DNA from: Candidatus Methylomirabilis oxygeniifera
Lineage (GTDB): Bacteria > Methylomirabilota > Methylomirabilia > Methylomirabilales > Methylomirabilaceae
Length of the DNA stretch: 32,000 bases
Direction: 5' to 3'
NCBI GenBank assembly: GCA_000091165.1
Contig: FP565575.1
Span: forward strand, 2,190,001 to 2,222,000
Shown: positions 24,517 to 27,876 of the stretch, one piece after another
Position numbering within the stretch: the first letter of the stretch is position 1
Layout: each line of letters opens with the position of its first letter
The notes under the pieces: model-generated
Seen by the model: the letters and a program-made list of their open reading frames with translations, nothing else
What the model was told of the DNA's origin: nothing
Databases searched by the model: none
Program-made: the position numbers and the translations under genes

Positions 24517-24534
24517 ATCAAATCCTCAACGTAA

Positions 24535-24588
24535 CTACTCAGGTAGAAAGGCTGAAGGCTGTTAAGGGTAAGAACCAGGCCTGAGTAG
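24535..24588 (-). terminator. 9-bp inverted repeat downstream of the MutS-like gene (weak terminator candidate)
   Basis: ctactcagg (24535-24543) pairs with cctgagtag (24580-24588) around a 36-nt loop, 31 nt beyond the stop at 24619. There is no U-run. Confidence 0.25.
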
Positions 24589-24618
24589 CTGCTCCTCGAC
24601 AACATGCCACCCCCCGGC

Positions 24619-26253
24619 TCATGTCTGACCCTTGGCGTCCTCTTCGGGCGAGGGCCCGCCTTCACCTCCATAGCCTCGCTCAACCAGGTGCTTCTCAATA
24701 TCTTCTTTCGCAAAGCCGATTCGTTGAGCGACCTTATGGGCATGACTGATCCGTGAGATCCCATCGATCAGTCGATGGGTAGGAGAACCATGGACAAACT
24801 CTGCCTGACGATAGAGGCCGACATCTCGTGTTCGAAACTGCTCCGCCAGCTCGTAATTATGGGTGACAAGCAACGTATTGTTACCGACTTGGTAAAATCC
24901 ACCGAGGATCGTATGGGAGATTTCCAACTTTTCCTGATAGGTAGTTCCTTCCGCCAGTTCATCCAGAATGACCAGGCTTCTGGGCGACGATGCGAAAAAG
25001 ATGGCCTTCGTGCGCTGTAACTCCGTTCCGAACCTCCCCTCGCGATCGACCAGCGAGTTACTTTCCGGAACCTGATAGAAGATCCGATCAGCCACTGAGA
25101 GTTGCGCCCGTTCGGCAGGCACATAACAACCGATCTGCGCCAGCAGTTGTGCCTGGGCAATGGTCTTGCAAAAAGCGGTTTTTCCACCCCCGTTGGGGCC
25201 GGTCACAAACGTTAATTTCACCCCGTTCAGGTTGATATCGTTGGGTACGTACTCGGCATTTCCCTTCCCCAGGATAGGGTTTCTAACTCGCTCCAGAACC
25301 ATAGCATGCCGATCCGAATCAATCAGCGAAGGCAGTACGGTCGGGCCGCCGAAGGCCTTGGCGTAGCAGTGGAAGGACAGCAATTCATCGATCTGTCCCA
25401 ATGCCTCTAACGCCTGATGAACATCTCGTGAGTCTCTATAGCCGTCTCGCAATGGATAGATAATGTTGTCTCGATCAAACCCTCCAATGAGAGGTCCGTA
25501 CAGCATGAATGAAGGGAGCAAGAACACCATCACGGCCGGCATCGCCGCGCGGGCTATCCCAAGAGTGGGAGCGTAATGCAGGAAGAGACCCATCGCAATC
25601 ACGAGCGCAACGATCAATCGCGGCTTGAAGAGAGTTGGTCTGAATTTGATGGCTGGGGTCAACAGCCACTTTTCAGCCTTCGTTTTGATGGCCCTCTCCG
25701 TCAGGTAGGCAGGGCCTTTCATTAAGGTATGCGATCGTGTGGAACCGAACGCCTTCAGCGTATCGAGGCGCGCGCGAAGATAGGGGCTTTCTGGTGTCGG
25801 CAGGCCGTGAGCGCCCTTCACGAGACCGAGCATGAGCTCCGTTCCTTGCCGATACGTTTTATGCCCATACCCCCCTGTCTCCATCTTTCCCCGGGGATCC
25901 CCGAGGGTGCCGACAAAGGTTCCAAACAACAGGCGGTAAAATTCCTCCTCGTGTTTTGCGGCCTGCTGTACCAGCGCTTCGATTCGCGCTCTCAGATCGG
26001 CGTTCGAGTCCAGTTCTTTGAGCGCGTCCTGTTTGGCCGTGATGGTCTCGATCGAACTCAAGGGATGGGCTAACGAGCGGTAGAGCGTGGCTTGCCCGGC
26101 GATGGTACCGGCGTAATTGACGGCGTCAAAGAGTCGACCAACTTCTATCGCGTTGAACGTGCTCTCATCAAGCACGCCTTCCCCTGTTTTCGCCGCTGTA
26201 GTCGAGCGAACCGACAGTTCCCTGCCGATGGCTTTTAGAAGAGGTTCGGACAT
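24619..26253 (-). CDS. MutS-related ATPase (domain III + domain V only) with two internal transmembrane helices
   Basis: 544 aa. The N-terminal TIAGQATLYRSLAHPLSSIETITAKQDALKEL matches the start of the MutS core (domain III). Hydrophobic stretches lie at about aa 212-228 and 236-258 (LIVALVIAMGLFLHYAP, AMPAVMVFLLPSFMLYGPLIGGF; nt 25480-25620). Walker A is FVTGPNGGGKTAFCKT (nt 25177-25200), Walker B is LVILDELAEGTT, followed by LLVTHNYEL. No mismatch-binding domain I, no Smr and no nuclease domain are recognisable. AGGAG RBS. Confidence 0.75.
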   Translation of the reverse strand: MSEPLLKAIGRELSVRSTTAAKTGEGVLDESTFNAIEVGRLFDAVNYAGTIAGQATLYRSLAHPLSSIETITAKQDALKELDSNADLRARIEALVQQAAKHEEEFYRLLFGTFVGTLGDPRGKMETGGYGHKTYRQGTELMLGLVKGAHGLPTPESPYLRARLDTLKAFGSTRSHTLMKGPAYLTERAIKTKAEKWLLTPAIKFRPTLFKPRLIVALVIAMGLFLHYAPTLGIARAAMPAVMVFLLPSFMLYGPLIGGFDRDNIIYPLRDGYRDSRDVHQALEALGQIDELLSFHCYAKAFGGPTVLPSLIDSDRHAMVLERVRNPILGKGNAEYVPNDINLNGVKLTFVTGPNGGGKTAFCKTIAQAQLLAQIGCYVPAERAQLSVADRIFYQVPESNSLVDREGRFGTELQRTKAIFFASSPRSLVILDELAEGTTYQEKLEISHTILGGFYQVGNNTLLVTHNYELAEQFRTRDVGLYRQAEFVHGSPTHRLIDGISRISHAHKVAQRIGFAKEDIEKHLVERGYGGEGGPSPEEDAKGQT

Positions 26254-26383
26254 TCATACACTCCTATCGAAGACGTCACTACTACAATAGCATCTTCTGC
26301 TCTCTAATGGCTAGTCCTGTGGTTGCACCCTTCCGGGTCAAACTCTCATCGATTTGTCCAGCCATCTGATCACGGTGCAGGCG

Positions 26384-26497
26384 GTCGTCCGCATTCATAC
26401 AAATTTCTTGTTAAGTGCCGAAGAAGGTTATAGAGTTTGGGCCAGCTTCAAGAACGGCTGGTCGAGATTGACTGATCAGCTTATATGATAGTCGGAC
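26384..26497 (+). repeat. ~114-bp direct repeat, copy A (upstream of brnT)
   Basis: Ungapped hand alignment with 27325-27438 gives 96/114 identities. The core 26426-26468 is 41/43 identical. It contains GTTAAGT (26410-26416) and promoter-like TTCTTG-17-TTATAG (26405-26433). Confidence 0.9.
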
Positions 26498-26562
26498 TCT
26501 GCAGACCTTGTTAGCATCGTATGCAAAGCGTATGCTAAGGGGAGATTTCTGGAGGGTATCTA

Positions 26563-26850
26563 TTGCGGATTACTGAAATCATCTGGAAAGAACGTGTGGT
26601 TGAGAAGATCGCGGGGAAGCATGGTGTGTCAGTTGCAGAGGTGGAAGAGGCACTTCTTTCCAGCCCCGTGGTCAGGAAGATGGTTAAAGGACGCGTCCAT
26701 GGGGAGGACCTGTACGCGGCTCTGGCTCAGATCAGTAGTGGGAGATATTTGATCGTCTTCTTCATTAACAAGAAGCGCGGCATGGCGCTGCCGATCTCGG
26801 CGCGTGACATGGACCGCGCGGAGAGAAACTATTATGGCGGACACAAATAA
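26563..26850 (+). CDS. brnT: BrnT-like (DUF497) toxin
   Basis: TTG start 6 nt after GGAGGG. IIWKERVVEKIAGKHGVSVAEVEEAL...SGRYLIVFFINKKRGMALPISARDMDRAERNYY follows the BrnT pattern ('W...K...KHGvsfeEaeevf ... iriISAR.a.k.Er..Y'). Confidence 0.65.
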   Translation: MRITEIIWKERVVEKIAGKHGVSVAEVEEALLSSPVVRKMVKGRVHGEDLYAALAQISSGRYLIVFFINKKRGMALPISARDMDRAERNYYGGHK

Positions 26851-27103
26851 GCGCGTAGACCCCCTGCCGGAGGAGTTTAGGTCGGAGGAGGAGGCTGCCG
26901 AGTTCTGGAACACCCACAGCATCACCGACTATGAGGAATTCCTGGAGCCTGTCGGTCTCGAAGTGGACCTCAAGAGGCGACACTTCGAGATAGAAGTGGA
27001 TGAGGAGAGCTTCTTGGTGTTGCGCGACAGGGCCAAGAAGCTCCAGAAGCCGGCAAAGGAACTCGCGAGCGAAATCCTCAAGCAGAAACTCGCGACGGTT
27101 TGA
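26834..27103 (+). CDS. brnA: BrnA-like / CopG-type antitoxin
   Basis: From the ATG at 26834 (17-nt overlap with brnT): MADTNKRVDPLPEEFRSEEEAAEFWNTHSITDYEEF... plus a C-terminal RHH-like LRDRAKKLQKPAKELASEILKQKL. The FxSEEEeaeFWdTHdstDY block is typical of BrnA antitoxins. Confidence 0.7.
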   Translation: MADTNKRVDPLPEEFRSEEEAAEFWNTHSITDYEEFLEPVGLEVDLKRRHFEIEVDEESFLVLRDRAKKLQKPAKELASEILKQKLATV

Positions 27104-27138
27104 GGGCGTTTGAATAGGCTGATTTGGGATGATCCGAC

Positions 27139-27381
27139 ATGGAGTCAGGTGACTGGGCGGTCCATGAGCTGCTCGGCCATCGCGATGTCAGCACTACAAT
27201 GATTTACGCCCACGTTTTGAACCGAGGTGCAGGGAAGTCCACAGCCCAGTCGATAGACTCGGAGTGGGCTTGGGCGGTCAGCAATCGGAAAATTGGAGAG
27301 GCTAACATAAGTGCAGCGTGTGCCATCGTCCGCATTCGGGCAAATTGCTTGTTAAGCGCTCGAGATGGTTATAGAGTTTAG
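27139..27381 (+). pseudogene. C-terminal relic of a tyrosine recombinase (integron-integrase/Xer-like box II)
   Basis: [39 protein letters not shown] (27142-27258) matches only the last ~40 aa of tyrosine integrases ('[34 protein letters not shown].GVrSPlD', with the catalytic Tyr in MIY). An in-frame stop at 27130-27132 and brnA lie immediately upstream, so about 300 N-terminal codons are missing. Confidence 0.7.
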
Positions 27382-27438
27382 GCCAGCTTCAAGAACGACT
27401 GGTCGAGATGGACCGATCAGCTTACATGATGGTTAGAC
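27325..27438 (+). repeat. ~114-bp direct repeat, copy B (upstream of the HNH gene)
   Basis: See copy A. It contains GTTAAGC (27351-27357) and TGCTTG-17-TTATAG (27346-27374). It starts about 65 nt after the end of integrase homology and ends 35 nt before the HNH start. Confidence 0.9.
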
Positions 27439-27472
27439 GCACGTTGAGCAAGCGAAAGCGAGATAGCGTGGA

Positions 27473-27808
27473 GTGAACAATTGGAACATTCCTGATTGGC
27501 TAGAAAAAGAGGTAAAGGACCGAGACAGGAGCTGCGTCTACTGTCGTATCGACTTTTTGGGGACATCCAATAGGACGAGAAAGTCGATCGCGACATGGGA
27601 ACATATTGTTAACGACGCGAGAATAATCAATCGCGAAAACATCGCCAGATGCTGTTTCTCATGCAATTCGAGCAAAGGCACGAAGAAGCTTTTCGATTGG
27701 CTCGAATCCAATTATTGCAAGAAGCGCGGAATCACCAAGGATACGGTCGCTGGAGTGGTAAAGAGGGCACTCGCTCCTCAGCCAAACATTCGTGACGACG
27801 GTGCCTGA
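27473..27808 (+). CDS. small stand-alone HNH endonuclease
   Basis: 111 aa, GTG start. CVYCRIDF...ATWEHIVNDARIINRENIARCCFSCNSSKG has the CxxC...H-N-(N/H)...CxxCN zinc-finger HNH layout. It is markedly AT-richer than its surroundings: I counted 28/60 G+C in 27481-27540 and 25/60 in 27601-27660. Confidence 0.8.
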   Translation: MNNWNIPDWLEKEVKDRDRSCVYCRIDFLGTSNRTRKSIATWEHIVNDARIINRENIARCCFSCNSSKGTKKLFDWLESNYCKKRGITKDTVAGVVKRALAPQPNIRDDGA

Positions 27809-27876
27809 CCCGTCGGTCAACACGGACGCACCTCAGCGGGGCTTCACCCACCTCTCGTACGCCAGTTACCTTCGGA

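Follow-up and report, generated by a model that had tools for sequence, protein, structure and literature searches.

Probable remnant of an integron cassette array between purU and a MutS-like ATPase gene in Candidatus Methylomirabilis oxyfera

Introduction

CALIN elements, which are integron cassette arrays that lack an integrase, and decayed sedentary chromosomal integrons are an established class of integron remnants (Cury et al. 2016), and CALIN elements near intI pseudogenes have been described (PMC4889954). The attC sites of such arrays are recognized as imperfect hairpins with a pair of R'' (RYYYAAC) and R' (GTTRRRY) boxes, and at least two of them are needed for a CALIN. Chromosomal integrons are stabilized by toxin-antitoxin (TA) cassettes, as in the superintegron of Vibrio cholerae (Richard et al. 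2024, PMC13108822). Single-gene HNH defence cassettes have also been reported (bioRxiv 10.1101/2024.07.02.601686), and Sirona and Nemetona are His-Me/HNH cassettes of the V. cholerae integron. In Candidatus Methylomirabilis oxyfera (FP565575), a group IIC-attC intron is present (PMC3001079).

In this study, we analyzed a stretch of 32,000 nt from this genome, hereafter the window. The interval 26254-27876, in the gap between purU and a MutS-like ATPase gene, is probably what remains, in a frozen state, of the cassette array of a chromosomal integron. The find is ordinary in kind, since integron remnants are already known. It resembles CALIN elements and decayed sedentary integrons in its co-oriented, small and promoterless-looking genes, the GTTRRRY core at cassette starts, the attC-derived sequence after the HNH gene, the intI pseudogene nearby, and a cargo at a fixed chromosomal site that varies by species and includes TA genes. 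Unlike a CALIN, it has no attC that passes the structural test, its 113-nt repeats are not hairpins, its integrase relic lies inside the array on the cassette strand, and there are only two units. An intact type II TA pair in a cassette array is shared with the V. cholerae superintegron, but the family here is brnTA and the array is tiny and apparently inert. The small stand-alone HNH-type nuclease gene carried as a cassette recalls Sirona and Nemetona in kind, and the family in the window has no Pfam family above threshold.

Results

All of the features listed in the original prediction were found in their places. That prediction had drawn a low-GC accessory islet from 24517 to 27876. The accessory DNA spans 26254-27876 instead, with the MutS-like gene outside it, and the low GC holds for this inserted part (0.522 versus a window median of 0.582), which is the lowest-GC 1.6-kb stretch in the window. 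The flanking count of 45 G+C in 60 nt at 20401-20460 was reproduced, and the HNH gene, also predicted to be low, has 26-32 G+C per 60 nt along most of its length. The units of the islet are encoded on the plus strand and the flanking core genes on the opposite strand. On the left, the insert is bounded by the upstream region of the MutS-like gene (26254..26384, no strand assigned), which is kept in relatives, with blastn homology reaching 26384 in loci L011/L012, 26320 in L007/L008 and 26269 in L009/L010. The right border is purU (27877..28764, minus strand), a core gene for formyltetrahydrofolate deformylase with Pfam ACT and Formyl_trans_N domains, which is syntenic in every Methylomirabilis locus examined.

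The gap between purU and the MutS-like gene is variable. M. limnetica has no insert there, and two further Methylomirabilis lineages have a different one. The gap in L011/L012 contains an MNT gene, a 25-codon HNH stump and a partial repeat, and no brnTA. In M. lanthanidiphila, the cargo comprises HicB, DUF1353, HTH, BrnA and a Na/H exchanger, all in cassette orientation, together with GTTAGAC cores and an attC-like site (16.7 bits, E 0.016, covariance model). The GTTAGAC core is also found at cassette ends in L007. Horizontal acquisition of the repeats, brnTA, integrase scar and HNH gene, as originally proposed, is borne out by their absence from M. limnetica and by the 79-84% nucleotide identity of the HNH gene to copies in other phyla, namely in Nitrospira, Manganitrophaceae and Aminicenantes.

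The MutS-like gene (24619..26253, minus strand, GC 0.55) encodes a protein of 544 aa with MutS domains III (Pfam MutS_III, E 8e-07) and V (MutS_V, E 9e-28). A two-helix membrane hairpin, seen as two hydrophobic segments at residues 213-231 and 233-259, is placed between them, in agreement with the domain III+V ATPase with two transmembrane helices that had been predicted. The ATPase motifs are intact, with invariant GPNGGGKT, DEL and TH. MutS1 is characterized by the mismatch-binding domain I and clamp IV, and MutS2 by a C-terminal Smr nuclease. The protein shares the core domain III and the ABC-type ATPase domain V, with intact Walker A, Walker B and H-loop, with MutS paralogues that have no mismatch-binding domains (MutS2 and KamC-type MutS-V ATPases), and its AF2 model (pLDDT 85.9) finds MSH2, MSH3 and MutS as the closest PDB folds, again a likeness to MutS paralogues. 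Unlike MutS2 and the KamC-type paralogues, it is without domains I, II and IV and without Smr, and has the membrane hairpin between III and V. Scores with the NCBIfam MutS models are 112-140 bits against cut-offs of 400-642, far below every equivalog cut-off. Assignment to MutS1 or MutS2 was rejected, domains III and V alone being detected. Across Candidatus Methylomirabilis species the gene is 81-94% identical and always just downstream of purU. The distance between the two is 25 bp in M. limnetica, with no TA, HNH or repeat. The MutS-like gene belongs to the conserved core of the genus, flanks the islet without being related to it, and probably shares a transcript with purU and yicC wherever no insert intervenes.

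The HNH gene (27473..27808, plus strand, GTG start) encodes 111 aa and belongs to an integron-cassette gene family of more than 1,500 homologues, each of about 110 aa. A Pfam search of the protein returned nothing at E 0.01, and weak HNH and HNH_5 matches were obtained in 14 and 19 of 21 family members, respectively. Its pattern is CxxC...H...N...CxxC-N, and the family invariants are CxxC, E-H, N and CCxxCN. With a dN/dS of 0.09-0.23, the sequence reads as that of an intact nuclease gene under purifying selection. Homologues adjoin bona fide integron integrases in L016/17, L019 and L030, where IntI (414-453 bits on TIGR02249, cut-off 265) is divergent and lies 93-602 nt upstream of the HNH gene. 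A GTTRRRY motif is located 10-60 nt upstream of the start codon in 22 of 82 HNH loci versus a background of 3%, a 9-fold enrichment. Canonical attC hairpins occur in many of the homologous loci, and in many phyla the family is found beside bona fide integron integrases and between canonical attC sites. Run on held-out loci, the attC covariance model built in this study detected 9 sites, every one of them on the strand of the HNH gene. At L099, in what looks like a live array, a 92%-identical copy is located between two canonical attC hairpins. The window has in common with this locus the start of the cassette (GTTAGAC core and 5' UTR) and the downstream attC, in mutated form; the untranslated leader (27439..27472, plus strand) is identical to that of L099 from ACGTTGAGC on and alignable with L016 and L018. 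As is characteristic of a cassette, the HNH unit has the G|TTRRRY crossover core of the site before it as its start, and members of its family are found in arrays that have a bona fide IntI and canonical attC sites.

Upstream of the HNH cassette, brnT (26563..26850, plus strand) encodes a 95-aa toxin (PF04365 BrnT_toxin, E 4.4e-09, 37 bits versus a cut-off of 34.5) and is a called gene in L001-L006. It is followed, with an overlap of 17 nt, by brnA (26834..27103, plus strand), called as a gene in L001, which encodes an 89-aa antitoxin of the CopG/RHH type (PF12441 CopG_antitoxin, E 1.5e-09, 38.9 bits versus 28). The pair has the BrnTA type II layout, a toxin gene and then an overlapping RHH/CopG antitoxin gene, both above the gathering score. 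Downstream of brnA come 25 nt, the integrase relic and the second repeat. The relic (27133..27290, plus strand) is an integron-integrase pseudogene consisting of the last ~45 codons with the catalytic Tyr kept; its ORF extends over 27139-27381, the open frame running through the second repeat. The tyrosine integrase remnant of the original prediction could be confirmed and specified: the best family is NCBIfam TIGR02249 integron integrase (E 4e-08, model positions 282-307 of 315; 32.9 bits versus a cut-off of 265), which beats XerC/XerD by 10 bits. The relic shares 19 of 22 residues with IntI of L019 and 80% of 56 nt with that intI gene, and it aligns with the IntI C-termini P0242-P0251, keeping the IntI-type tail NRG-x-G-x3-x-x-D. 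Judged by these matches it is of integron-integrase type. It lies on the cassette strand with its 3' end toward the HNH cassette, which differs from the usual divergent intI-attI layout.

Two direct repeats flank the brnTA/integrase unit as predicted, each 113 nt long rather than 114. Copy 1 (26385..26497, plus strand) precedes brnT, and copy 2 (27326..27438, plus strand) precedes the HNH gene. The copies are 85% identical and are the only two in the window (0 in 100 shuffles); beyond the window the repeat was found nowhere except for the partial copy in L011/L012. The last 7 nt of each copy correspond to the cassette crossover core, which is GTTAGAC in copy 2 (27432-27438), fitting GTTRRRY, and a mutated GTCGGAC in copy 1 (26491-26497). 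Copy 2 stops precisely where the HNH cassette starts, and from this point on the sequence is homologous to the cassettes of L099 and L016. Folding of the repeats is weak (z -1.6 and +0.2 for the two copies) and their consensus fold has three small hairpins, not the single hairpin of an attC. Neither folding nor the covariance model, which scored nothing on them, supported the repeats as canonical attC sites.

A decayed attC of the HNH cassette was located at 27815..27873 (plus strand). The R''-like GGTCAAC survives; the stems carry mutations, and where the R' box would be there is the 3' end of purU. Column for column, the sequence can be aligned to the intact attC of L099 (1222-1289) and to its L011 counterpart, and it folds at -0.08 kcal/mol per nt versus -0.26 for the L099 site. 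A naive scan of the window for AAC...GTT pairs with DNA folding found no site with attC-like energy, and the ad hoc covariance model gave no hit below E 0.05. The segment 27803-27882 received 9.9 bits (E 0.89), a score that is uninformative because the same model gives the intact L099 attC just 9.1 bits. For the brnTA unit, where an attC of its own would be expected at the 3' end directly behind the ORF, a candidate R'' box, GGCTAAC at 27300, pairs with GTTAGAC at 6 of 7 positions, and the 138-nt span folds at just -0.1 kcal/mol per nt. Measured by the attC definition, the window holds neither a complete integron nor a CALIN: there is one decayed homologue without R', and in place of an intact integron integrase gene beside the array about 45 C-terminal codons are left.

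Discussion

The original prediction had united the membrane MutS-like ATPase, the HNH nuclease and brnTA as an undescribed anti-phage system of the NTPase plus HNH type, as in Septu. We consider this highly improbable, although the parts list resembles that of a defence system and the ATPase motifs are intact. The prediction itself had named as its refutation a conserved core MutS-like gene at this place in relatives, unaccompanied by HNH, TA or repeats, and this is what is found: the core gene stays beside purU in M. limnetica with neither HNH nor TA, and in two other lineages with different cargo. No neighbourhood association was detected between the two genes. A MutS-like protein is encoded in 0 of 86 HNH-homologue loci (986 kb), and six MutS-like lineages outside M. 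oxyfera (three Methylomirabilis and three gammaproteobacterial) have no intact HNH and no such brnTA. In M. oxyfera the two genes are divergent and 1.2 kb apart, and in L011/L012 an intact MutS-like gene stands beside a mere HNH stump. The analogy to Septu comes down to an HNH motif, aligned between the PtuB models and HNH residues 16-74 (59 residues, E 4e-05), and a P-loop, the one feature that the MutS-like protein shares with PtuA (E 0.039). The islet differs from Septu in having no PtuA, a 111-aa HNH protein versus about 213 aa in the PtuB models, no operon and no co-occurrence. Septu membership, which calls for a PtuA ATPase gene that stands beside the PtuB HNH gene and recurs together with it, was rejected: the PtuA match of the MutS-like protein covers the P-loop alone, and the 86 HNH loci showed no co-occurrence.

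Two other explanations concern the repeats. The segment from repeat 1 through brnTA and the integrase relic to repeat 2 could be what is left of a small integrative island that a tyrosine recombinase had inserted, with the repeats as attL and attR and with no tie to integrons. Direct repeats bracketing a 941-bp unit with an integrase remnant beside one of them are the classical layout of an island, the single partial repeat without brnTA in L011/L012 is consistent with an empty or excised site, and the repeats are not attC-like hairpins. We nevertheless regard an island as unlikely. The relic fits the integron integrase better than XerC/XerD and has the IntI-type tail, no tRNA, tmRNA or gene 3' end was found duplicated at the repeats, the GTTRRRY core in which the repeat terminates falls precisely where the HNH integron cassette, delimited on independent grounds, starts, and the HNH gene, beyond the repeat-bounded unit, is a cassette in its own right whose attC has decayed. 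Less likely still is that the repeat arose by simple local duplication, or is a small regulatory or RNA element ahead of brnT and HNH that plays no part in recombination. This explanation would agree with the presence of two copies only, both 35-65 nt upstream of a same-strand gene, with a single compensatory change in the small 3' hairpin, and with a weak promoter-like site in copy 1. However, the promoter count is not above that of shuffles, an Rfam search of the repeat gave no match even at E 1, and a random duplication leaves unexplained why both 3' ends coincide with the cassette core.

The preferred reading, decay of an integron cassette array, draws on the anatomy and synteny of the region, on cassette homology and on the integron contexts of homologues. 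It implies that an integron once stood at this site and later decayed. Of its two cassette-type units, unit 1 comprises brnT-brnA and then the last ~45 codons of the integron integrase, and unit 2 the 111-aa HNH nuclease gene followed by the mutated attC, whose R' box was lost at the purU junction. A 113-nt repeat precedes each unit and ends in the core, which reads GTTAGAC ahead of HNH and, in mutated form, GTCGGAC ahead of brnT. The array is presumably static, with nothing excised or captured, because no integrase and no intact attC are left there. By analogy with TA cassettes in sedentary chromosomal integrons, the intact brnTA most likely persists as an addiction module, which would guard the neighbouring DNA against loss.

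The HNH protein may be a stand-alone nuclease acting in defence or against mobile DNA. The PADLOC candidate PDC-S14 (a GIY-YIG + DUF4357 protein) directly adjoins HNH homologues in 18 of 83 loci and places the family in defence-type neighbourhoods; it is absent from the window, where the HNH gene stands alone.

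Gene content of the interval between the MutS-like gene and purU

The stretch from 26254 to 27876 of the window is best read as a decayed integron cassette array. It is flanked by yicC (23513-24394) and the minus-strand gene of a 544-aa MutS_III and MutS_V protein (24619-26253) on one side, and by purU (27877-28764) on the other. Its plus strand carries brnT (26563-26850) and brnA (26834-27103), which both exceed the Pfam gathering scores, an integrase-relic ORF (27139-27381), whose first ~45 codons encode a tyrosine recombinase C-terminus, and a 111-aa ORF with a zinc-finger HNH pattern (27473-27808). 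A direct repeat of 113 nt is found at 26385-26497 and 27326-27438. All features listed in the original prediction were recovered by the ORF map, Pfam and repeat search, and its statements on GC content were correct: the islet has a GC content of 0.522, the lowest of any 1.6-kb stretch, against a window average of 0.582, and the HNH gene has 0.482. Six contigs were fetched from M. oxyfera assemblies. Of these, five span the MutS-like gene and match the window at 100% identity over 24400-27950; the sixth does so up to its contig end. A tmRNA gene (10624-10973) and three tRNA genes (10152-10225, 10326-10397 and 3394-3466), all on the minus strand, are also present in the window; they are unrelated to the islet, and the 113-nt repeat is not a duplicate of any of them.

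A variable site beside a conserved gene

What lies between purU and the MutS-like gene depends on the lineage. The two genes are 25 bp apart in M. limnetica, and the gap is empty. A third lineage, represented by loci L011 and L012, has an MNT nucleotidyltransferase gene in the gap, together with the final 25 codons of the HNH gene and 30 nt from the right-hand end of the repeat, and yicC is the next gene as in the window. In L007, a locus of the M. lanthanidiphila type, the gap is occupied by genes for HicB, a DUF1353 protein, an HTH protein, BrnA and a Na/H exchanger; two of the genes are followed by GTTAGAC cores, and BrnA is followed by an attC-like site. The MutS-like gene is therefore a core gene linked to purU, and the variable site is the gap between them. 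The horizontal acquisition suggested for the whole region holds for 26254-27876 and fails for the MutS-like gene.

The original prediction had joined the MutS-like ATPase, the HNH nuclease and the toxin-antitoxin (TA) pair in one anti-phage system. Comparison of the yicC-purU interval across relatives, which it had proposed as a check, gave exactly the outcome named there as refuting it, since in M. limnetica the MutS-like gene is conserved beside purU without HNH gene, TA pair or repeats. No neighbourhood association was found either: among the 86 loci (986 kb) that carry HNH homologues, not one encodes a MutS-like protein, and neither an HNH nor a TA gene stands beside the MutS-like gene in any of three gammaproteobacterial lineages. 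The suggested likeness to Septu was not borne out by the PADLOC models, in which the ATPase matches only over the P-loop and the HNH protein matches PtuB only at the HNH motif. The proposed joint system is refuted. A false lead is thereby removed, and the membrane MutS-like ATPase is placed outside any defence islet.

A defence-type island is found in L007 at 9812-17305, downstream of the MutS-like gene and at the position held by yicC in the window. It encodes type I restriction-modification subunits HsdM and HsdS, an MNT/HEPN pair, a SIR2_2 protein and a DUF5131 protein. As this island lies on the other side of the MutS-like gene, both sides are insertion sites in the genus. The 30-nt spacer between purU and the MutS-like gene of M. 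limnetica was also considered as the 3' half of an attC site, and the similarity was too weak for this to be claimed.

Probable traces of an integron

A direct link to a cassette array was provided by L099, a contig on which an HNH gene with 92% protein and 96% DNA identity to that of the window lies between two canonical attC sites. The leaders of the two genes are the same from the cassette core onward, reading GTTAGAC-GC-ACGTTGAGCAAGCGAAAGCGAGATAGCGTGGAGTG in the window and GTTGGGC-AC-ACGTTGAGC... in L099. The downstream attC site of L099 aligns column by column with 27815-27873 of the window, where several G-to-A changes fall in the stems and the end of purU takes the place of the R' box. 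The window site no longer folds, with a folding energy of -0.08 vs -0.26 kcal/mol per nt in L099. L099 runs on into the same MNT cassette as L011. This cassette follows the HNH gene in L011 (7306-7614 and 7266-7373) and in L099 (1331-1339). Behind it, L011 retains no more than the first ~35 codons of a HEPN-like partner, which breaks off at the stop codon of purU. Trimming of the array therefore proceeded from the purU side and reached different points depending on the lineage.

The integrase relic has its best family match in the integron integrase TIGR02249 (E 4e-08, compared with 6.7e-05 for XerC), and its sequence aligns with the C-termini of IntI proteins. It shares 19 of 22 residues with the IntI of locus L019, and the DNA is 80% identical over 56 nt. 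A word-indexed search for a full-length relative gave only other short IntI C-terminal fragments. These matches (P0242-P0251) are ORFs of 64-108 aa, some of them scrambled at the N-terminus (e.g. P0248); some lie on very short contigs, where truncation by the contig end is possible. In environmental assemblies, truncated stumps of integron integrases may be common.

The two copies of the 113-nt repeat are 85% identical and are the only ones in the window. They could be regarded as the attL and attR sites of an integrative islet, which we consider improbable. Both copies end exactly at a cassette core (GTCGGAC at 26491-26497 and GTTAGAC at 27432-27438), beyond which the unrelated leaders of brnT and the HNH gene begin, and this coincidence argues for the remnant of a recombination site rather than a random duplication. 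The repeat is nevertheless not a canonical attC site: DNA folding was weak on both strands (z from -1.7 to +0.5), a naive scan of the window for R''/R' boxes and folding energy returned nothing attC-like, the consensus fold consists of three small hairpins, in which only one pair is compensatory, and the covariance model described below gave no match. A further and weaker possibility is that this repeat of 113 nt, which does not form a hairpin of the attC kind, represents a new kind of integron recombination site. Like attI sites, it has three direct GTTA motifs, and its second copy lies just behind the integrase relic; unlike in the attI layout, the relic faces the HNH cassette rather than pointing away from it. 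The brnTA pair and the first copy of the repeat stand at the place expected for the 5' part of intI.

Other identities for the repeat were rejected. A dispersed element was rejected because no copy was found in the 86 HNH loci, a known RNA because no Rfam family was matched at the gathering score or at E 1, and a promoter because promoter-like motifs were not more numerous than in shuffled sequences. JGI metagenomes yielded one exact 21-mer match, which lies inside an Hsp20 gene (L098, 275-296) and is judged to be due to chance; it falls at the Hsp20 motif ...SASFKNGVL..., and ASFKNG also appears in one translation frame of the repeat.

Under the reading as a decayed cassette array, an integron array would once have occupied the purU/MutS-like site in the genus and would since have decayed differently in each lineage. 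As neither an integrase nor an intact attC site is left, the islet has lost its mobility. It would represent a fossil integron whose chromosomal site is fixed within the NC10 genus Methylomirabilis, with cargo that differs between species and is wholly lost in one, and a small natural example of chromosomal integrons decaying into anonymous 'accessory islets'. FP565575 has been listed with a group IIC-attC intron (CBE67152) outside any cassette array (PMC3001079), which is another trace of integron-associated elements in M. oxyfera.

The brnTA pair of the islet is an intact, standard overlapping TA pair. Its homologues in cassette arrays were limited to one weak match (L053, 35% identity). TA pairs in chromosomal integrons are addiction modules protecting the array (PMC13108822), and by analogy brnTA most likely survives as such a module.

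A widespread family of HNH cassettes

More than 1,500 homologues of the HNH protein were found, of ~110 aa and with 60-92% identity, most of them on very short contigs. No Pfam family was matched above threshold. Scanning of one genome per species gave 80 loci from at least 15 phyla. A bona fide integron integrase (TIGR02249 score of 414-453 bits, cut-off 265) is encoded divergently 93-602 nt upstream of the HNH gene in L016/L017, L019 and L030, where the HNH gene is the first or an early gene of a same-strand array of small genes. A GTTRRRY core is present 10-60 nt upstream of the HNH start in 22 of 82 loci, compared with 3% at random positions, and many loci have canonical attC hairpins (GCCTAAC...GTTAGGC, ~-0.3 kcal/mol per nt). 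From 12 of these hairpins a covariance model was built, which detected nine more attC sites in held-out loci, all nine on the HNH strand.

The window HNH protein keeps all residues invariant in the family, and dN/dS values of 0.09-0.23 indicate purifying selection on the family. DNA identity of 79-84% between phyla points to recent transfer. The gene has been lost in the L011 lineage.

We further found a GIY-YIG and DUF4357 protein, matching the PADLOC candidate PDC-S14 (E 7e-100), encoded directly beside the HNH homologue in 18 of 83 loci. These include L016 (5361-6206), L023, L026, L031, L037, L042, L044, L050, L053, L061, L078, L079, L081, L084, L090 and L094. The PDC-S14-type gene lies before or after the HNH gene, at times with overlapping stop and start codons, and is absent from the window. 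The two may form a two-gene nuclease module. Single-gene HNH cassettes with anti-phage activity have been described in a Vibrio integron (bioRxiv 10.1101/2024.07.02.601686), and together with the PDC-S14 neighbourhood they make a defence role plausible by analogy. For the HNH protein, a PDB profile search gave marginal HNH matches only, and the AF2 model (pLDDT 48) was left out of the fold search. We tentatively propose, as a possibility short of an even chance, that these proteins constitute an undescribed, very widespread family of integron-cassette nucleases, often the first cassette beside intI and often adjacent to PDC-S14, which possibly act against phages or mobile DNA alone or assisted by PDC-S14. 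The highly mobile family and its frequent partner are cheap candidates for defence screens.

The MutS-like protein

The MutS-like protein is identical on the M. oxyfera contigs and has 81-94% identity in other Methylomirabilis species, falling to 52-63% in gammaproteobacterial methane and ammonia oxidisers. Among the top 120 matches listed, all named homologues outside NC10 are from Gammaproteobacteria, mostly methane or ammonia oxidisers (Nitrosococcus, Methylococcaceae, Methylomagnum, Methylocalor and Methylothermaceae; loci L013, L014 and L102-L104). Two hydrophobic helices form a membrane hairpin (residues 213-259), and the MutS-type ATPase is intact (Walker A GPNGGGKT, DEL, TH). A confident AF2 model (pLDDT 85.9) superposes on the cores of MSH2, MSH3 and MutS; the protein has no domain I, II or IV and no nuclease domain. 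Gene neighbours vary by lineage. In two gammaproteobacterial lineages gloB is the next gene, and in two an RP005_N/Pyr_redox_2 oxidoreductase of 1170-1237 aa is encoded near or adjacent to it. Literature searches on membrane MutS paralogues returned nothing relevant. The gene, with a GC content of 0.55 that is under the window median, behaves as a housekeeping-type gene and not as cargo, and this conserved membrane-anchored family, shared by NC10 and gammaproteobacterial methane and ammonia oxidisers, is left as an uncharacterised housekeeping-type protein.

The 3' coding end of the gene contains a perfect 7-bp inverted pair (GCTCAAC...GTTGAGC, 52 nt apart, 24678-24729), which gave the best match in the window to the ad hoc attC model (14.3 bits, E 0.058). 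The pair has a centre that does not fold (-4.5 kcal/mol) and is probably due to chance within a conserved coding region.
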